A DNA stretch of 29,045 nt from a virus (Duplodnaviria; Heunggongvirae; Uroviricota; Caudoviricetes). Below the pieces are notes generated by a model. It saw nothing but the letters and a program-made list of their open reading frames with translations. It was not told where the DNA came from and ran no database searches. The stretch covers positions 1 through 29,045 of IMG/VR virus record IMGVR_UViG_2579778652_000007; one strand, written 5' to 3'. The position numbers and the translations under genes were made by a program. Each line of letters starts with the position of its first letter. Within the stretch, counting starts at the first letter, position 1. Positions 12,921 through 28,284 of the stretch are shown here, in pieces.

Positions 12921-12937
12921 ATTGCTCTAATAATTCC
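12921..12937 (+). promoter_or_regulatory. C1-operator-like 17-mer ATTGCTCTAATAATTCC (14/17)
   Basis: Begins 2 nt after the stop of the GT8-like gene; forms an inverted pair with 12970-12986. Confidence 0.5.
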
Positions 12938-12945
12938 ATATTTTT

Positions 12946-12973
12946 AAAACGTGATGTACACTCATCACGTTTT
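12946..12973. terminator. Hairpin AAAACGTGATG-tacact-CATCACGTTTT, possible bidirectional terminator
   Basis: 11-bp perfect stem, T-rich 3' flank on plus strand, A/T-rich on minus; centred between the two inverted operator-like sites. Confidence 0.6.
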
Positions 12974-12986
12974 TTATTAGAGCAAT
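12970..12986 (-). promoter_or_regulatory. C1-operator-like 17-mer on minus strand (ATTGCTCTAATAAAAAA; 14/17)
   Basis: Reverse complement of 12970-12986; mirror partner of 12921-12937. Confidence 0.5.
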
Positions 12987-14555: not shown

Positions 14556-15062
14556 TTGAGTATTTTCAATAAACACGCACACCAGGAACGTCCGTATATC
14601 GTCATAGTTGATATTGATGGAACAATATCAGAGGCAACTGAAGACAGACTGCATTTGCTTCCGCCACCAGGTAAAGGTGCATTAACAAAGGACTGGAACG
14701 AGTTTAATCTCGCCTGTGACACCGATACTCCCATCACTCCAGTTATTGATATGGTGCGCCAGTTATTTAACGTTTACACGGTCTGGTTTGTAACCGGGCG
14801 CTGTGAGATCGCAAGGGATAAAACACGAGCCTGGCTGCGGAAGTACGTAACAAACGGGGCTGAGCCTTTGCTATCTATGCGTCCTGCCACCGATGACAGA
14901 AATGACGGCCCAGCAAAGATTGATCTCCTTAAGAAAATTGGTCTAAGTAAAATCGCGTTCGCGCTGGAAGATAAGATTGAAGTGGCGCGTGTTTTCAGGA
15001 GGCACGGCGTGCTTACGTTAATGGTCAGGGAGTATGAAAACGCGCTTCTCCATCAACAATAA
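14556..15062 (+). CDS. HAD-superfamily phosphatase (DxDxT; P1 Pap-like by family and position)
   Basis: TTG start with GAGGAGG 5 nt upstream; N-terminal IVIVDIDGTISE (DxDGT motif). Confidence 0.7.
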   Translation: MSIFNKHAHQERPYIVIVDIDGTISEATEDRLHLLPPPGKGALTKDWNEFNLACDTDTPITPVIDMVRQLFNVYTVWFVTGRCEIARDKTRAWLRKYVTNGAEPLLSMRPATDDRNDGPAKIDLLKKIGLSKIAFALEDKIEVARVFRRHGVLTLMVREYENALLHQQ

Positions 15063-15078
15063 TTGCTCTAATAAATAT
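15062..15078 (+). promoter_or_regulatory. C1-operator-like 17-mer ATTGCTCTAATAAATAT (16/17)
   Basis: Overlaps last base of the HAD phosphatase stop; precedes the accessory cassette. Confidence 0.6.
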
Positions 15079-15160
15079 TGATTTTTAAAACAGAGGAAGT
15101 GAAAATAAAAACATGCCGCAAGGCGCGGCATGTATCCAATCAATCACAGGAGCTGAAAAT

Positions 15161-15247
15161 ATGAACACGGCATTCAAAATCATTATGGCCGCGATCTATT
15201 TCTGGCTGTTCTCTATCACTTTTGGCGGCATCGTCGCACATGGGTAA
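15161..15247 (+). CDS. Possible 28-aa hydrophobic peptide
   Basis: RBS CAGGAG 6-7 nt upstream; MNTAFKIIMAAIYFWLFSITFGGIVAHG; too short for ORF track. Confidence 0.3.
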   Translation: MNTAFKIIMAAIYFWLFSITFGGIVAHG

Positions 15248-15256
15248 GGGGGATGC

Positions 15257-15838
15257 ATGAAAGGCGAAGTGAAAGAGCGCGGCATGATTTTTAACGATGA
15301 GATGGTCCGGGCAATTCTTGGCGGGAATAAAACACAGACTCGCAGGATTGTTGAAGAAAAATTCTATGGACGGGCAGTGGCCGCAGAGTTGCTTGCCAAG
15401 CATTGTCCATATGGTCAACCGGGCGATCGTATTTGGGTTCGCGAAACCTACCGGGTACATGGCAAAGCGACGGACGTCGCAACGCTGGTTTATCGCGCAA
15501 GCGTGCGTAACTCCTGGACAGAACAAACGCACCGGGTTCCGGTCGAGGTTTGTAATAAACCAGTATCAGAAAAGTGGACGCCATCAATTCACATGCCGCG
15601 CTGGGCATCGCGCATTCTTCTGGAAATTACCAACGTGCGCGTTGAGCGGTTGAACGATATCAGCGAATGCGATGCAAGGGCTGAGGGCGCACCAACAGAA
15701 TCGACCCTCATTGGCGATAAGCATTACCCAGGTTTCCGTAGCCTATGGAAATCAATTTATGGCGAAGATAGTTGGAACGCTAATCCTTGGGTGTGGGTAA
15801 TAGAGTTTGAGCGTATTCAGGGGGCAACCAGTGAGTGA
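15257..15838 (+). CDS. ASCH-domain-like protein
   Basis: 193 aa; MIFNDEMVRAILGGNKTQTRR resembles ASCH G-x-K-T-x-(E/Q)-x-R signature; RBS GGGGG 5 nt upstream. Confidence 0.7.
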   Translation: MKGEVKERGMIFNDEMVRAILGGNKTQTRRIVEEKFYGRAVAAELLAKHCPYGQPGDRIWVRETYRVHGKATDVATLVYRASVRNSWTEQTHRVPVEVCNKPVSEKWTPSIHMPRWASRILLEITNVRVERLNDISECDARAEGAPTESTLIGDKHYPGFRSLWKSIYGEDSWNANPWVWVIEFERIQGATSE

Positions 15839-16091
15839 GTCAAAATGCCAAATTAATGGCAACAAGATAGAACCGTGCGCGGCGTTGGCACAATCCCTGG
15901 AGCATGACGCTGAATACACGACGCGAAAAGGTCTGCTGAAATACAAAATCTATAACCATGAATTAATTCATTCACAAGACCTGATCATGCTGCGGTCTGG
16001 TGAATTTTCTAAATCGCCTATTCGAGTTTCATTTTGCCCGTTCTGTGGTGAAAGTCTGAAAACGTGGGAAGCGGAGGCAACCAGTGAATAA
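15831..16091 (+). CDS. Small hypothetical protein with C-terminal CPFCG motif
   Basis: GTG start overlapping upstream stop (GTGAGTGA); ORF track gives 15807 (TTG) as longest start. Confidence 0.45.
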   Translation: MSESKCQINGNKIEPCAALAQSLEHDAEYTTRKGLLKYKIYNHELIHSQDLIMLRSGEFSKSPIRVSFCPFCGESLKTWEAEATSE

Positions 16092-16728
16092 CCGCTTTTA
16101 CATGATGTGCTTGCGTGAAACTGTGGGTAATAACGCCTCATTCCATTGCCATAACGGCAATGGTTACAGTTCTGATATCGATCGCGCTCATGTTTACACG
16201 CTGGAAGAAGCCCAAAAAGCCTGGAATTGTGGACGAGATATCGATCAGCCTGTTTGCGCTGATAGCGTGGATGCAATGGCTGTGTGGCACGTTGATTGCC
16301 AGTACATCCCCACAGAAAGCCTGATTGAGTCAGATTGCACTGCGTATGTGGCCTACAAAAAAGGTAGCTGGAACGGCAACGATGTTTACTGGCTTCAACA
16401 CGGTGGATTGCCAACAGATGACTTCAGTAAGGTGACCATCTTTAGCGTCGCCAACAAAAACGAACCAGGAATAGTTTGGTTGCCATTTTCCATTGCTGAT
16501 GCAGCAAAGCGTCGGACGTTCAATATCAATAACTTTAACCGCAGAACAATGGTTCAGGGCGCAGGTTTGGTCATGCCTGACTGGTTGAAAGAGCAGAACA
16601 GAAGAAAGAAGTCGCGAAGCGGGAAGGTGCGTTGGAATTGTCCGCATTGCGGAAAAATAACCTGGCAGTACAGCCCATATGATTTTGAAGGCTGTAGTGA
16701 TTACAACTGTGAAGGATGGCGAGAATGA
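16084..16728 (+). CDS. Cys/His-rich hypothetical protein
   Basis: 214 aa; GTG start with GGAGG 8 nt upstream; motifs FHCHNGNG, WNCPHCGK, CEGW. Confidence 0.6.
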   Translation: MNNRFYMMCLRETVGNNASFHCHNGNGYSSDIDRAHVYTLEEAQKAWNCGRDIDQPVCADSVDAMAVWHVDCQYIPTESLIESDCTAYVAYKKGSWNGNDVYWLQHGGLPTDDFSKVTIFSVANKNEPGIVWLPFSIADAAKRRTFNINNFNRRTMVQGAGLVMPDWLKEQNRRKKSRSGKVRWNCPHCGKITWQYSPYDFEGCSDYNCEGWRE

Positions 16729-17354
16729 CAATTGACTATCAGGCACTGCGTGAGGCGGCGGAACGTGCAATTCCAGCAATGGAACGCCTGTTAATGTTGC
16801 CAGCTGATGATGATTTGTTAAGTGAACAGGAACTTAAAGATTACGGTGTGGGTATTGATGCGCTCAACGCCTTCAAATTTCTGGCCGGACCAGAAACCGT
16901 GCTGGCACTGCTGGATGAACGGGAAAGAAACCAGCAATACATCAAACGCCGCGACCAGGAGAACGAGGATATTGCGCTAACGGTTGGGAGGCTGCTAATC
17001 GAAAACGGCCAGCTTGTTGCCGATACGCTACGCCACTTAGCTGATAACGAAATCGACTCTGATTATTTTGCTATCACCTCAACGAATGAGAACGGTACTG
17101 AAATTGATCATGAGATGGCTATTACCGATTACGCACTGCAAGCTGCCGGAACTGTAGACGAATTGGTTGCGGCGCTGGAATCCGCAGAGAAGCGCATTGC
17201 AGAACTGGAAGCGCGGGAAATACTGCTCCCGGAACGTAGCAGCATGCTTCATCGAACAGATTTTCACGATGATTACCAAACGGTAATGGCATACAAAGTT
17301 TCTGAAGTCATCGATGCAATCCGCGCTACTGGCATTCGCATCAAAGGAGAGTGA
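16725..17354 (+). CDS. Ea22-like (ead/Ea22 family) protein
   Basis: N-terminus MTIDYQALREAAERA and acidic coiled-coil body typical of lambdoid Ea22-like proteins; ATGA overlap with upstream stop (alternative start 16716). Confidence 0.7.
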   Translation: MTIDYQALREAAERAIPAMERLLMLPADDDLLSEQELKDYGVGIDALNAFKFLAGPETVLALLDERERNQQYIKRRDQENEDIALTVGRLLIENGQLVADTLRHLADNEIDSDYFAITSTNENGTEIDHEMAITDYALQAAGTVDELVAALESAEKRIAELEAREILLPERSSMLHRTDFHDDYQTVMAYKVSEVIDAIRATGIRIKGE

Positions 17355-17355
17355 T

Positions 17356-17565
17356 ATGGCTATTGCCGCAAGTTACACCATGCATCTCTACTGTGATTGT
17401 CGCCAGTGTACAAATGGTAAATATCAAACGCCAGACTTCGGTGAGTATATCGGTACGTCATGGGCTGGCTGTGCAAAAGAGGCGCGCAAGGATGGCTGGC
17501 GAATAAGCAAAGACAAAACGCGTGCTTTTGCGCCCGGGCATAAAGTTTTGAGGATTAACAAATGA
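17356..17565 (+). CDS. Small Cys-rich hypothetical protein (70 aa)
   Basis: ATG with AAGGAGAG RBS; YCDCRQC motif; ORF track gives longer 17314 start overlapping upstream gene. Confidence 0.55.
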   Translation: MAIAASYTMHLYCDCRQCTNGKYQTPDFGEYIGTSWAGCAKEARKDGWRISKDKTRAFAPGHKVLRINK

Positions 17566-18449
17566 CCACTATTACCAAAGAGCGACTGCTGACAATCAAG
17601 CAGTGGCGCGAAACATACGGACCTGGTAGCAACGTTGTACTGCCAGCAGAAGAAGCGGAAGAACTGGCACGAATTGCTCTGGCATCGCTGGAAGCAAAAC
17701 CAATAGGTGCATTCCACATTGCAGAACAGCAAGTTGACGGCACAAGTGACTACCTCAAGGATGGAGAATGGCCTATTGATAATGGAATTATTGAGGTCTA
17801 CGCCGCTCCACCCGTTCCAGTAGTACCGGAAGAAAAACCAATGCCTAATCCTCTTAGCATGTACGCGGTTGATGCTGTTGCCGCTATTGCAGAGGTGATA
17901 GGCTGGAATGCCTGCCGTGCCGCTATGCTTCAGTCCGGAAACTTTCGGGAAAACAAGAATTCGTCAACCAATAATTTTCGGGAAATCGCGGAAACGTCAA
18001 CCAACTATCCGGTAATTCCTAGTGAGGTGTTGTCCGCAATCTTGAAGGTTGCCAAGATTCGTGCCGATTTCGATGATTTTGACGGTGACAGGCGAGGTAT
18101 CGGTGATTGTCTGGATGAGGCTGAGCAAGAGCTTATCGTTACCATTAACAAATATGCCAGTCAGTTGGCAGCAGAACCTATAGCGCCTAATGACGTTCGA
18201 GAGCAGACAGCCATTCCGCAAGTTCCGGTAACTCCGGATGGTTGGATAAGCTGTAGTGAGCGAATGCCGGATACCAAAACAGCCGTTCTTGTTGCCAGGG
18301 AGTTTGACAGGAAAGGTGACTGGCGAATGAAATGGGCGACTTACATCCCGGGGCATCCTGACGCTAATGATGGGTGGGTAATACCTGGTGCGTCGTGGAT
18401 TCCATCACACTGGATGCCGCTACCAGAACCGCCGCAGGAGGCGAAATGA
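17562..18449 (+). CDS. Hypothetical protein with DUF551-like C-terminus
   Basis: 295 aa; C-terminal DGWISCSERMPD...WMPLPEPP resembles DUF551; ATGA overlap with upstream stop. Confidence 0.7.
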   Translation: MTTITKERLLTIKQWRETYGPGSNVVLPAEEAEELARIALASLEAKPIGAFHIAEQQVDGTSDYLKDGEWPIDNGIIEVYAAPPVPVVPEEKPMPNPLSMYAVDAVAAIAEVIGWNACRAAMLQSGNFRENKNSSTNNFREIAETSTNYPVIPSEVLSAILKVAKIRADFDDFDGDRRGIGDCLDEAEQELIVTINKYASQLAAEPIAPNDVREQTAIPQVPVTPDGWISCSERMPDTKTAVLVAREFDRKGDWRMKWATYIPGHPDANDGWVIPGASWIPSHWMPLPEPPQEAK

Positions 18450-18706
18450 TGGATGTAAAAGAGAAGGTTTTGCAGGTGATGCGTTCCCGTGCTGCCCTAC
18501 AAGAGAAAGCTCTCGGCGGTGAATATCCATTCACGATAGCAACCTGGAATCTGCGGTTGGCAATGGAGAAGGAATTTCCTGATGAAGAATGGCGCTCGGC
18601 AGATTTGCGCAAAATTCTTATGGAGCTGGCTAAAGACGGAACAGTATCCAAAGATACCCATGCCAGCCGGATTGGTCAGGCGGTATGGAGACTTGAGGTG
18701 CGGTAA
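18446..18706 (+). CDS. Hypothetical small protein (86 aa)
   Basis: ATG overlapping upstream stop (ATGATG); ORF track gives longer 18374 start. Confidence 0.5.
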   Translation: MMDVKEKVLQVMRSRAALQEKALGGEYPFTIATWNLRLAMEKEFPDEEWRSADLRKILMELAKDGTVSKDTHASRIGQAVWRLEVR

Positions 18707-18780
18707 TGAGCTGGCCTGAAGCATTTGCGATTGTAGGCGTAGCTATGGCGATTGCCGCTATTTTTATCTTCTGGGGGTAA
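18706..18780 (+). CDS. Possible 24-aa hydrophobic peptide
   Basis: ATG overlaps upstream stop (TAATG); MSWPEAFAIVGVAMAIAAIFIFWG; 2 nt before next ATG. Confidence 0.3.
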   Translation: MSWPEAFAIVGVAMAIAAIFIFWG

Positions 18781-18782
18781 CG

Positions 18783-19016
18783 ATGGGAAAATTAACTTTT
18801 GTTGTCGAATTTGAGGATGGCAAAGAGCCACCTGTTAGCGCCAATCTTGATGTTGCTGGTGGCAGGCTGGTTTCGGTTCTATTTGGTGATTACCGCGACG
18901 ACTTCTTTCAGCCTGAAGAAGTTGATGTAGTGCGAGAAGCATTAAACGAGCTAAGTGTTGATAACGATGATGCTCATGCGGAAATCATCAAAAAAATGGA
19001 ACTGCTAACTCACTAA
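18783..19016 (+). CDS. Hypothetical acidic small protein (77 aa)
   Basis: ORF-track ORF; tight spacing with neighbours. Confidence 0.5.
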   Translation: MGKLTFVVEFEDGKEPPVSANLDVAGGRLVSVLFGDYRDDFFQPEEVDVVREALNELSVDNDDAHAEIIKKMELLTH

Positions 19017-19064
19017 ATTATCAATTATGGTGCTATCACCTACGACACCGAGAGAAAATTTATA

Positions 19065-19187
19065 ATGTCAAAAGTAAATGTTTTGATTTTTTCAGCAATT
19101 GTTGGCTTTGGTTTTACTGCCGGAGTGCAGATTTATATTGCGTGGGAAAAAATCATCAACTACGCATGGAGTTGTTTTATTAAGTGA
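19065..19187 (+). CDS. Possible 40-aa hydrophobic peptide
   Basis: MSKVNVLIFSAIVGFGFTAGVQIYIAWEKIINYAWSCFIK; stop 8 nt before next ATG. Confidence 0.3.
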   Translation: MSKVNVLIFSAIVGFGFTAGVQIYIAWEKIINYAWSCFIK

Positions 19188-19194
19188 GGTAAGT

Positions 19195-19488
19195 ATGTGG
19201 AGAGGTAATAGTCATGGCAAAAGCCAGATGATACTTACCGAATATCAGTTTGACCATAAAACCAATAAATCACGTTCAGTATATTTGCTTCGGCACAATA
19301 GCCGCGTAAGGAATACCGTACTGGAGCAAAATCTGACTGTTGAAATGGATAATTACGGTGGCTTCAAGCCAACAATTTCGCTTGATGATTTTCCTCGTGG
19401 TTTAAGCGAAAGAGAAGCAATGCTGAAATTAGCAGAATGGCTACAAAGATTAAGCATTGCTATTGAAGATAACTGGTCTGAACCTTAA
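19195..19488 (+). CDS. Hypothetical protein (97 aa)
   Basis: ATG with GAGG 6 nt upstream; ORF track gives longer 19099 start. Confidence 0.5.
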   Translation: MWRGNSHGKSQMILTEYQFDHKTNKSRSVYLLRHNSRVRNTVLEQNLTVEMDNYGGFKPTISLDDFPRGLSEREAMLKLAEWLQRLSIAIEDNWSEP

Positions 19489-19494
19489 ATTTAT

Positions 19495-19869
19495 ATGATG
19501 ACACTAAAACATTTTCTTGACCGCCCATTATGGGCGGCAGCCGCAGGCTATGACTTTAATTATATGGATTGCATGTCTTATACTGCCAATGCATACGACC
19601 ATTCGTTCAGCCTGCTGTTTAATTCTTTAAGAATATTGCCGGAAACAGAAGTTGGAGAGCTTCATTTATGGCTATTGGGCTTTATCGCGGCTGTCGTTGG
19701 TATTGCTGTATGGCCTTTTATTTTCTGGCTGGTGGCTGTTGTAGTGTGGTTTAAGTGCAAGACGTACCGGAGAAAGTATTTCTTAGGTGATGGAATGACT
19801 GATATTGCCAAAATGAACATTGAAAAATGGACTAAGGAATGTGAAAAGAAATGGCGCAAAAAGAAATGA
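19495..19869 (+). CDS. Hypothetical membrane protein (two predicted TM segments)
   Basis: 124 aa; hydrophobic stretch LWLLGFIAAVVGIAVWPFIFWLVAVVVWF; Lys-rich C-terminus. Confidence 0.6.
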   Translation: MMTLKHFLDRPLWAAAAGYDFNYMDCMSYTANAYDHSFSLLFNSLRILPETEVGELHLWLLGFIAAVVGIAVWPFIFWLVAVVVWFKCKTYRRKYFLGDGMTDIAKMNIEKWTKECEKKWRKKK

Positions 19870-20789
19870 CCAGAATCACTGAAGAGCGTATATCAGAGAT
19901 TATTTCCCGTATCGAAATGTATGGTCACGGTGCTGGATATACGGCAGATGAAGTATTGGCACTTGCCCAAATGGTTTTGGCGGCTTGCAAAGATGATAAA
20001 AAAATGAAGTTTATCGACTTGTTAGTGAAGGAGCTGCCTAAGTGCGGCGGGTGGCCTGATGGAATGAGTTATTGTTACCTACCCAGTGTCAATTTAATGG
20101 CACCATGCGCGACTTTTGCTTTTGGCTCAGACCACAAAAAAGACACTTTCTTTGGGCGCAATTTTTGTTGTGATATTGAGCTTCCAATTGGTGACCTTGA
20201 TAGCGATGAATACCAGTCAGTTGTCACTCGCGAACAATACGAATCAGCTCTCATAGCGTCGCAGAAAGTCGAGTTCAATGGTGATGAACTTGAAAGTAAG
20301 ACTTACAGGTTGGATTTTGGGCAATGGCTGGAACAGCAACGCGGGAAAATCGATGTGGACTGTGGTTGTGTGTCCACTGAAACATTCATGCACTGGCTGC
20401 GGGTAGCTTACGAGGCTGGCAACTATCCGGATATTCCGGATAGTTCGGTGCCAGCGCCAGGAAAGGGCGTCACCGGTGAACGTATCCGCATTAAGCCGCA
20501 TGTTTATCGCGAACTGGTTAACCGTCTCCACGATACAGCGATCAAGTGTGCTGGCACCCAGCAATTACGAGAAAAAATTAGCCGTGTTTTGGGCGACGTT
20601 ATTACGCCAGATCATCATAAACAAGCCGAGAAAAGTGGCCTGGAAAGGTGTCACCTTGAGGCGGCATTAAACATTAAGCCGGGGCATACGCTTGGCATTA
20701 TTGATGCACTATTGGTTCATAAGATGGCCAGGGCTTTATTGCCGCTGGTGGCTGATAAGCATGAGGCGGGCCATGCCAACGAAAGCTGA
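19866..20789 (+). CDS. Hypothetical protein (about 307 aa)
   Basis: ATG 19866 overlaps upstream stop (ATGA); ORF track start 19851; no motif recognised. Confidence 0.65.
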   Translation: MTRITEERISEIISRIEMYGHGAGYTADEVLALAQMVLAACKDDKKMKFIDLLVKELPKCGGWPDGMSYCYLPSVNLMAPCATFAFGSDHKKDTFFGRNFCCDIELPIGDLDSDEYQSVVTREQYESALIASQKVEFNGDELESKTYRLDFGQWLEQQRGKIDVDCGCVSTETFMHWLRVAYEAGNYPDIPDSSVPAPGKGVTGERIRIKPHVYRELVNRLHDTAIKCAGTQQLREKISRVLGDVITPDHHKQAEKSGLERCHLEAALNIKPGHTLGIIDALLVHKMARALLPLVADKHEAGHANES

Positions 20790-21057
20790 GTTACAGGCGC
20801 GCATAGAGATTCTTGAAAAAGAGAATGCGAGTCTAAAAGGAATGCTGGCGCGGGCGGAAAGGGAATTATCAGGCAAATTATTGCCAGAAGAACTGCCACC
20901 AGCAGATATACCAGATCGAGTGTCCCGGTGGATGAAGTCTTTTGGTTTACCGTGGGAGGCTTTTTGGTGCTACGAGCATCGCAGATGGTGTGATGAACTT
21001 GATAGCAGTTTCCCCTACTTTGCGGAAGGGAACACCTGCCCTGAGTGTAGGAGGTAG
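20773..21057 (+). CDS. Hypothetical protein with N-terminal coiled coil and C-terminal Cys motif
   Basis: 94 aa from ATG 20773 (17-nt overlap with upstream gene); AELQARIEILEKENASLKGML; C-terminal CPEC. Confidence 0.5.
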   Translation: MPTKAELQARIEILEKENASLKGMLARAERELSGKLLPEELPPADIPDRVSRWMKSFGLPWEAFWCYEHRRWCDELDSSFPYFAEGNTCPECRR

Positions 21058-21061
21058 CGCG

Positions 21062-21322
21062 ATGTTTCGTCCTCGTCCAATACCGCCGAAAATAACTAAT
21101 GGCTATCAGCCGAATACTCCAGAAATACAAGGGAGCGAGGGGCTTAAACCACCACCAGCACCACGTATTCCGCCTGTAGCAAGGAACGTATCATTACGAC
21201 GAGAGTTAATATTAGCCTTGTCGCCCGTTCTGGCTGCCCGCCAGGATTGGGTAAGTAATGATGACCTGGCAGAAAAAATCACATCGCTGGTGGATAAAAT
21301 TCTGCATAAAGCTGATCTCTGA
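21062..21322 (+). CDS. Pro-rich hypothetical protein (86 aa)
   Basis: ATG with AGGAGG 9 nt upstream; ORF track gives 20942 start overlapping upstream gene. Confidence 0.5.
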   Translation: MFRPRPIPPKITNGYQPNTPEIQGSEGLKPPPAPRIPPVARNVSLRRELILALSPVLAARQDWVSNDDLAEKITSLVDKILHKADL

Positions 21323-21332
21323 TCACCATGCT

Positions 21333-21365
21333 AAAATCCCCTCAATTCACAGAGGGGATTTTTGT
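21333..21365 (+). terminator. Hairpin with U-tract, probable terminator ending the accessory cassette
   Basis: AAAATCCCCTC-aattcaca-GAGGGGATTTT, 11 nt after stop at 21322. Confidence 0.7.
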
Positions 21366-21367
21366 CT

Positions 21368-21634
21368 ATGTTGCATAGAGTTTTATGGAAAAGCGTTATT
21401 GTCGGCGCGATACTGGCTATATCTGGGTGTGCAATGGTGCAATACAACGACGGTGAAAAGGTAAGCATACAGTCAGATGGTTGGTATGGCCTGGATAGCC
21501 TGCAAAAAACCGCAGATAAAGCCTGTCAGCAATATGGGAAGTCTAAAGCAGTATATCAGCATAGCGCGAACGCTAACCCTCATCTAGCGCCCGGTTCGGG
21601 TGTTCAGAATACCATCTGGAAATGTGAGCCTTAA
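21368..21634 (+). CDS. Small lipoprotein (P1 Upl-like position)
   Basis: Signal peptide plus lipobox (LAISGC); ATG 21368 with AGAGGGGA upstream; ORF track start 21362 (TTG). Confidence 0.7.
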
Positions 21635-21636
21635 AT

Positions 21637-21888
21637 ATGAGCGACTGGAATATTGCAGCTAAAAGTCAGGAAGAACGGGATAAGGTTAACGTTGATCTGG
21701 CTGCCAGCGGTGTGGCGTACAAAGAGCGATTGAACATACCTGTCATAGCTGAACAGGTAGCCCGCGAGCAACCAGAGAATCTGCGCACCTATTTCATGGA
21801 ACGGCTACGGCACTACCGGCAGTTAAGCCTCCAGTTGCCAAAAGGGAGCGATCCGGCATATCAGAAAGATGATGCCGTAAAGAAATAG
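21637..21888 (+). CDS. hot: Homolog of DNA polymerase III theta subunit (HolE); P1 Hot-like
   Basis: 83 aa; [43 protein letters not shown] closely parallels E. coli HolE. Confidence 0.85.
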
Positions 21889-24960: not shown

Positions 24961-25002
24961 ATTGCTCTAATGTATTGCTATTTCTTTAATCGAGGTTATT
25001 AT
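24961..25002 (+). promoter_or_regulatory. C1-operator-like 17-mer ATTGCTCTAATGTATTG (14/17) overlapping -35 of a sigma70-like promoter (TTGCTA-16-TATTAT) upstream of lpa-like gene
   Basis: Operator 24961-24977; -35 24975-24980; -10 24997-25002. Confidence 0.55.
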
Positions 25003-28267: not shown

Positions 28268-28284
28268 CTTGCTCTAATAAATTG
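28268..28284 (+). promoter_or_regulatory. C1-operator-like 17-mer CTTGCTCTAATAAATTG (15/17)
   Basis: Begins 4 nt after the pacB stop. Confidence 0.55.

Follow-up and report, generated by a model that had tools for sequence, protein, structure and literature searches.

P1-like phage-plasmids frequently carry resistance genes in Escherichia coli and Salmonella, and the stretch from pmgT to humD is one of their eight variable regions (region 8); in JL22, a cluster with a methyltransferase and an Ea22 gene among its members stands in the place of pmgT (PMC9603915). The exchange of genes, restriction-modification (R-M) systems included, among P1-like elements, phages and plasmids has been quantified (PMC10879196). 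A related setting is the exo-xis region of lambda and Shiga toxin (Stx) phages, whose genes are among the earliest transcribed and affect lysogenisation and induction; Ea22 is pro-lysogenic and shifts the lysis-lysogeny decision, for which no molecular mechanism has been given (PMC10834534, PMC7093339, PMC3824215). Here we analyse a locus with ties to both in IMG/VR record IMGVR_UViG_2579778652_000007, a stretch of 29,045 nucleotides (nt), referred to below as the window, which is part of a P1-family phage-plasmid. The locus (positions 15062-21365) lies between the phosphatase gene pap and a lipoprotein gene followed by hot. The locus itself, its operator, its variability and its exchange with type IC R-M genes have all been described; the window holds a new combination of known modules, and our findings overturn no current view. 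As new leads of modest weight we note the second gene's ASCH fold and catalytic motif, an unmatched fold in the fourth, three tiled micro-ORFs (very short open reading frames, ORFs), and the interpretation of P1 pmgT/pmgU as a scar left by deletion.

We interpret the region, with a probability of roughly 0.8, as a C1-repressed early operon of a P1-family phage-plasmid, situated at the locus of the OpmgT/Op88 pmgT operon of P1 and of the 'hea' operon of P7. That the cassette is, in identity and regulation, a C1-controlled P1-type early operon is very probable. The cargo is a 6.2-kb mosaic of 16 accessory, non-structural genes, framed by the following signals:

15062-15078, + strand: C1 repressor operator ATTGCTCTAATAAATAT, 16/17 match to the C1 consensus, equivalent of P1 OpmgT/Op88 and P7 Op(hea)
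15063-15106, + strand: predicted sigma-70 promoters over the operator (-35 at 15063-68 with -10 at 15086-91; -35 at 15078-83 with -10 at 15101-06)
15111-15133, strand not assigned: 9-bp GC-rich leader hairpin, z -4.7 (+ strand) and -5.3 (- strand)
21333-21362, + strand: intrinsic-terminator-like hairpin with T-run, 11-bp stem, -18.3 kcal/mol, z -4.05 against shuffled sequences, tail TTTTTGTCT

C1 operators were defined as 17-bp asymmetric sites near ATTGCTCTAATAAATTT, and a scan allowing up to three mismatches returned six matches in the window, compared with 0.14 expected by chance. The site at 15062-15078, which a first-pass annotation of this DNA had proposed as the gate of the cassette and which our comparison bears out, aligns base for base with the annotated OpmgT of P1 (formerly Op88) and Op(hea) of P7 at the same position, differing by one base from the former and by none from the latter; statements on Op88 rest on the GenBank annotation of P1. 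Its first base is the last base of pap, and it overlaps a predicted sigma-70 promoter located, as in P1, directly after that gene. The promoter boxes are predictions transferred from the P1-annotated P2pmgT and P1pmgT through a near-identical alignment. Promoter-like sites within the region number seven, compared with 13.2 expected by chance. Five further C1-operator-like sites with two or three mismatches lie at 9297-9313 (-), 12921-12937 (+), 12970-12986 (-), 24961-24977 (+) and 28268-28284 (+); the pair at 12921/12970 is the counterpart of the P7-annotated Op(sht a/b) pair upstream of the pmgR/pmgS (shtA/shtB) operon.

The leader hairpin is kept in P1, P7, RCS47 and the hsd-type plasmid discussed below. 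Since a T-run follows it on the - strand only, it looks like a terminator for leftward transcription (of hsdR in hsd-type plasmids), not for the operon. The hairpin at 21333-21362 would close the operon as a predicted intrinsic terminator, in keeping with the first-pass annotation. Within window 21351-21370, its 3' arm (GAGGGG) probably doubles as the ribosome-binding site for the lipoprotein gene, which starts with the ATG at 21368; hairpin formation would therefore mask that site. Another terminator-like site, at 18745-18761, was rejected, its folding being no better than that of shuffled sequence (z 0.37), and a search of the cassette against Rfam found no known RNA at E<=0.1.

Between operator and terminator the following genes were assigned, with start codons picked by ribosome-binding site, overlap with the preceding stop and full-length PHROG matches:

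15161-15247, + strand: g1, hydrophobic micro-ORF of 28 amino acids (aa), AGGAG ribosome-binding site, conserved leader
15257-15838, + strand: g2, ASCH-fold protein of 193 aa, homologue of the PmgT N-terminus, K-T-R motif like that of YqfB
15831-16091, + strand: g3, 86 aa, GTG start, Cys C6, C16, C69 and C72, full-length phrog_4030 match, weak DUF6980 match
16084-16728, + strand: g4, 214 aa, GTG start, C-terminal C4 zinc ribbon, opens the block shared with lambdoid phages
16725-17354, + strand: g5, Ead/Ea22-like, ATGA overlap with g4, internally mosaic, Pfam PF13935 E 1.5e-26
17356-17565, + strand: g6, 69 aa, Cys C13, C15, C18 and C39, phrog_926 over 69/69
17562-18449, + strand: g7, 295 aa, C-terminal DUF551, Pfam PF04448 E 1.3e-20
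18446-18706, + strand: g8, 86 aa, 'eaa protein' in some annotations, phrog_2814 over 86/86
18706-18780, + strand: g8b, 24-aa hydrophobic micro-ORF, TAATG-coupled to g8, stop 2 nt before g9
18783-19016, + strand: g9, 77 aa, phrog_3876 over 77/77
19065-19187, + strand: g10, 40-aa hydrophobic micro-ORF, phrog_5525 over 40/40, E 1.1e-24
19195-19488, + strand: g11, 97 aa, phrog_1258 over 97/97
19495-19869, + strand: g12, 124-aa membrane protein, phrog_2638, hydropathy 2.6
19866-20789, + strand: g13, 307 aa, PHROG mosaic, 10 Cys, residues 195-295 corresponding to P1 PmgU
20773-21057, + strand: g14, 94 aa, coiled-coil N-terminus, C-terminal 4-Cys motif (66, 73, 89, 92), phrog_3797 over 93/94
21062-21322, + strand: g15, 86 aa, Pro-rich N-terminus, strong ribosome-binding site

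The array had been described beforehand as about 19 co-oriented small genes. Co-orientation and overlapping junctions hold, the count does not: our model comprises 16 genes, of which 13 encode 69-307 aa and three are micro-ORFs (24, 28 and 40 aa). Eight junctions overlap (by 8, 8, 4, 4, 4, 1, 4 and 17 nt), six are gaps of 1-9 nt and one is a gap of 48 nt; about 99% of the array is coding. The start of g11 at ATG 19195 is supported by the complete coverage of its PHROG match and that of g13 by its paralogy to the start of g7. Five of six long antisense ORFs have no PHROG match; the one at 18000-18356 (- strand, opposite the DUF551 part of g7) matches phrog_23547 (E 1.9e-26), which is probably a family of mis-called antisense ORFs. 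The G+C content at window 19000-20200 (g10 to the N-terminal part of g13) is 37-41%, compared with 45-52% elsewhere in the cassette.

Taking into account these features, we propose that C1 keeps the operon silent in the plasmid-prophage state and that, on infection or induction, host RNA polymerase would make one early polycistronic mRNA with coupled translation. The encoded proteins may then act early on the host, on its physiology, through nucleic-acid modification, on the lysis-lysogeny balance or in counter-defence, and not in virion assembly. Turnover of the cargo would proceed by recombination with co-resident lambdoid prophages and with other P1-like elements at recurrent joints.

Salmonella phage SJ46 is 99.4% identical to 15062-21365 across 74% of the length of the region; RCS47, P7 and P1 match it more patchily, and 16073-18718 is matched by hundreds of Stx and other lambdoid phages. 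In nine P1-like loci with both flanks placeable, the interval from pap to hot measures 2.3 (P1), 5.0, 5.1, 5.6, 6.7, 7.5, 8.1, 8.4 and 8.7 kb, as against 6.6 kb here, and the gene set differs in every locus measured. The suspicion that the region is an accessory island variable relative to P1 is thus well founded, and the variability is already published. The exact gene combination of the window occurs in no record of the phage, plasmid and complete E. coli genome collections, the best match being pCTX_B2_4 with 87% coverage. Similarity to relatives breaks off at joints that recur at the same coordinates in independent local alignments (15251, 15348, 16073, 16753-16776, 16896-16995, 17337, 17562-17702, ~17900, 18408-18718, 19189, 19870, 19969, 20287, ~20410, 20751-20754, 21058, 21285 and 21635), many of them inside g2, g5, g7 and g13. 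As judged from these alignments, the recurring joints represent modular exchange typical of lambdoid phages. The modules are the leader with g1, which every P1-like element with pap at this position retains; g2; g4-g8, shared with lambdoid phages; and g9-g14, which P1-like elements share mainly with one another. The 3' end (g15, terminator and lipoprotein gene) is shared with one plasmid only; a D6-like element has in common with the window the sequence from the end of g15 across terminator and lipoprotein gene. A junction motif before g3 and g4, GGCAACCAGTG, was considered as a recombination linker and dropped after a repeat search found no such family.

P1 and P7 resemble the window in the position after pap, the predicted promoters, the leader hairpin and micro-ORF g1. 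The 'hea' operon of P7 (upf86.8-upf90.8) shares g2, g3 and g4 at 99% aa identity and lacks g6 and g8-g12. P1 indeed has only a few genes here, as stated in the first-pass annotation, namely pmgT/U/V and upfM/N/O, in 2.3 kb as compared with 6.6 kb in the window. Beyond leader and g1, P1 shares a divergent allele of g2 (47% aa identity) and a vestige of g13, none of them functionally characterised; the same gene content with characterised functions is therefore not present in P1. In P1 PmgT, residues 1-232 correspond to an ASCH protein like g2 (47% identity) and residues 232-308 come from DNA resembling g13 that is read out of frame (92% identity to window 20407-20637); PmgU equals residues 195-295 of g13 (94% identity). 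Because PmgT is thus an out-of-frame fusion of a g2-like protein with g13-like sequence and PmgU is what is left of g13, its C-terminal third, reference P1 pmgT/pmgU is, to judge by these alignments, a deletion derivative of a larger cassette of the g2-g13 type. The segments compared were 2202-3271 of the P1 locus extract (L003) and 15257-15793 and 20407-20750 of the window.

The same site can exist in a quite different state. Many P1-like plasmids match pap, operator and g1 only and diverge at 15251. In p50579417_1, the interval up to phd/doc is replaced by type I hsdM-S-R genes on the opposite strand, and cassette, hot, lxr and humD are all missing; the left joint of the replacement falls immediately behind g1 (window 15251), the right one ahead of phd. 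The junction of pap, leader and hsdR occurs in at least 251 plasmids, and that of the leader with the g2 allele of the window in 147. IncF plasmids carry the same hsd and phd/doc block with an 84-bp leader remnant adjoining IS1. Sections of two locus extracts (L009, 9001-16224; L010, 7001-14018) hold the locus in its hsd state. Tyndall et al. reportedly described in 1997 that type IC hsd loci are flanked by P1 DNA. Those of EcoR124 and EcoDXXI occupy the same interval as the cassette; unlike the latter, they are a defence system encoded on the opposite strand, and they replace hot, lxr and humD in addition to the cassette. The link between hsd and P1 is also stated in the P1 GenBank notes, and PMC12707154 cites Tyndall et al. 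1997 as its reference 364.

The lambdoid flavour noted earlier is borne out by g4-g8. Both a P22-like phage and an Stx2a phage have homologues of g4, g5 (Ea22-like), g6, g7 (DUF551) and g8 in this order, preceded by N and recT (or bet/exo) and followed by xis/int. Nucleotide identity over the block is 94-98%, and the proteins g6 and g8 are 94% and 95% identical to those of the Stx2a phage. By position and synteny, this counterpart is the exo-xis ('ea') stretch of the pL early-left operon. Like the exo-xis region of lambda, P22-like and Stx phages, the cassette would be an early operon under the control of a repressor, made up of small, coupled genes that are non-essential. By contrast, its block resides in a plasmid prophage under P1 C1 control between pap and hot, whereas the lambdoid block is controlled by CI and N and lies between recombination genes and xis/int. 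Genes orf60a, orf61, orf63 and ea8.5 of lambda, the published exo-xis core, are not among the Pfam or PHROG matches of the cassette. The locus is one place of gene trade between P1-like phage-plasmids and lambdoid or Stx prophages, and its gene families also occur in the poorly understood exo-xis region that influences Stx prophage induction. Of 5,426 complete E. coli genomes, 3,658 contain pieces of the cassette, which are mostly chromosomal; given this spread and the exo-xis families, a functional assignment for g2 or g4 would extend to very many prophages.

The g2 protein had been called ASCH-like by inspection. It has no match to Pfam ASCH (PF04266) even at E 10, so the assignment fails at the level of Pfam; its PUA-like beta-barrel ASCH fold is nevertheless confirmed by structure prediction. 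In a library-wide search at E<=0.001 the g2 family numbered 43,872 representatives, and six of 43 diverse members matched Pfam ASCH weakly (best E 2.4e-4). An alignment with hhalign placed residues K16, T19 and R21 of the family, which are invariant across it, on K21, T24 and R26 of YqfB, an ASCH-domain amidohydrolase of E. coli (numbering of g2 from the ATG at 15284). In YqfB, the Lys, Thr and Arg residues are essential for hydrolysis of N4-acetylcytidine (ac4C), and the catalytic set also includes a Glu (PMC6972931); E54 of g2 may be the equivalent of YqfB Glu74, a tentative placement. Based on fold and motif, an amidohydrolase activity of g2 is plausible. YqfB consists of 103 aa, whereas g2 has 193 and an extra C-terminal part. 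The small gene of RCS47 that RefSeq names ASCH is different from g2 and absent from the window.

For g4, structure prediction gave a confident model without a fold match. The family is diverse (down to 47% identity), reaches Yersinia, Acinetobacter and Methyloprofundus, and keeps 18 residues invariant; among these are three cysteines of a C-terminal C4 motif, whose fourth, C209, is nearly invariant. Searches of solved structures by sequence with g2, g4, g5, g7 and g13 and with two profiles yielded nothing significant; the sole structural hint is a weak similarity of the g4 C-terminus to the eL43 zinc ribbon (E 0.02).

Three hydrophobic micro-ORFs had been put forward as possible genes, and g1, g8b and g10 substantiate this. 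The g8b and g10 frames stay open and hydrophobic in divergent alleles of relatives: a divergent 27-aa hydrophobic allele of g8b with the same tiling is present in two plasmids, and g10 is intact across 11 nt differences in pCTX_B2_4. A breakpoint 12 nt into g8b had suggested a recombination scar, an explanation rejected in view of the second, divergent allele, which keeps frame, hydrophobicity and tiling. The g1 peptide is identical (100%) in 11 cassette-type P1-like loci and 96% identical in the hsd-type plasmid, is absent from the D6-like p2_035123 and has no PHROG match. In cassette-type elements that keep the pap-leader junction its DNA is as invariant as its protein, and g1 is thus a putative coding micro-ORF, not a proven one. 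The 44-aa 'membrane protein' form of g1 annotated in SJ46 would start inside the stem of the leader hairpin.

An early host-directed or counter-defence function of the cassette is our tentative choice, at rather less than even odds. Among the genes of alternative cassettes are an orphan adenine methyltransferase and a member of the PAPS-reductase family, which by analogy would fit a nucleic-acid modification theme, a circumstantial argument. Several findings weigh against a C1-repressed early operon with such a function. No cassette gene matched a protein of tested function, and all PHROGs concerned are of 'unknown function'; NCBIfam produced no match in the cassette, and the PADLOC defence models assigned none of the ten largest proteins to a family. 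Promoter, timing and termination are predictions made from sequence, a strong hairpin stands between the predicted promoter and g1, and the same site holds a type I R-M system elsewhere, which makes a lysogeny-expressed role possible for some of the genes. Across Pfam (E 0.01 and E 10), NCBIfam, PHROGs and PADLOC, the only functional names obtained were Ea22, DUF551, hot and pap; no anti-defence name appeared among the Pfam, NCBIfam and PHROG matches, these being general libraries, with no dedicated anti-defence search made. It is tempting to speculate about a two-state site, with type IC R-M as lysogeny-side defence in one state and a C1-silenced operon of counter-measures in the other, in which g2 might remove N4-acyl marks (ac4C on host tRNA or a modified nucleic-acid base) at the start of the lytic cycle and g4 might be a new zinc-ribbon fold acting on a host nucleic-acid or ribosome target; as a whole, this scenario is unlikely.

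Other views of the cassette have to be weighed against the early-operon reading. The type IC R-M genes at the same site in other P1-like elements would suit moron-like cargo that is expressed in the plasmid-prophage state and aids the host through exclusion, defence or stress tolerance. So would the three small membrane peptides and the membrane protein, which resemble exclusion factors in size, and the DUF551 protein YfdS of prophage CPS-53, which has been linked to oxidative-stress tolerance (PMC4776307). However, a C1 operator over the promoter is the only recognisable control element, internal promoter-like sites are not in excess, PADLOC recognised nothing, and the tight translational coupling argues for one transcript; expression in lysogeny as the role of the cassette is quite unlikely. 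Decay to recombination debris without current function might be suspected from the out-of-frame fusion and truncated remnant at the locus of reference P1, from short DUF551 fragments in relatives and from the fact that the region is non-essential in the laboratory. It is very improbable for an array that is almost entirely coding with ORFs intact and coupled, in which g4 retains its invariant residues to 47% identity across genera, the catalytic motif is invariant throughout the large g2 family, and micro-ORFs keep frame and hydrophobicity despite divergence. Least credible of all is that the genes help to build or mature virions, as the product name 'putative morphogenetic function' of pmgT/U/V in the P1 GenBank record implies; the upstream pmgR/pmgS, a separate C1-controlled operon, are in fact linked to head or sheath in the P7 annotation. 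Yet pmgT/U/V and upfN/O of P1 score non-essential, and pmgT/pmgU themselves appear to be a deletion scar. Moreover, the content varies across all elements examined, the whole set is missing from the plasmids, at least 251, in which the pap-leader junction persists (phage viability of those is not established), and the lambdoid homologues belong to the early-left operon and not to the structural genes.

The flanks of the C1-controlled operon are as follows, with lxr and then humD downstream of hot:

14556-15062, + strand: pap, HAD/PNKP-type phosphatase, left flank, Pfam HAD_PNKP E 5.2e-12
21368-21634, + strand: lipoprotein gene, right flank, lipobox ISGC, phrog_7757
21637-21888, + strand: hot, DNA polymerase III theta homologue, right flank, Pfam DNA_pol3_theta E 4.7e-34

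In 11 of the 12 P1-like loci that have pap, its aa identity is 93-99%. The pap gene of pCTX_B2_4 is truncated (77% over 82%) and adjoins an ISEcp1-blaCTX-M-15 insertion, which lies inside pap directly upstream of the operator (locus extract L004, 1-2010) and places a resistance module at the edge of the variable locus. The same plasmid is the only one of 16 loci with g15 (99% identity), a rare gene without a match in PHROG, Pfam or NCBIfam.

The remaining proteins largely agree with the first-pass annotation. Cys-rich proteins are indeed several (g3, g4, g6, g13 and g14), and the Ea22-like and DUF551-like assignments pass the Pfam thresholds, with 94.1 bits for g5 (Ead_Ea22; gathering cutoff 27) and 74.5 bits for residues 227-292 of g7 (gathering cutoff 22); DUF551 is uncharacterised (PMC4776307). 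The g12 family is narrow, being confined to P1-like elements with 16 clusters only, and for a hint of resemblance to the membrane toxin CptA (Pfam E 0.059), hhalign against E. coli YgfX gave a probability of only 19%, driven by the transmembrane segments. Parts of g5 are matched by 15 different PHROGs with breakpoints within the gene, and the N-terminal module of g7 is paralogous to that of g13 (repeats D1 and D2 in the repeat search). Within g7, window 17940-18004 contains a 33-nt tandem duplication of 78% identity, which repeats an 11-aa unit (NFRENKNSSTN / NFREIAETSTN).

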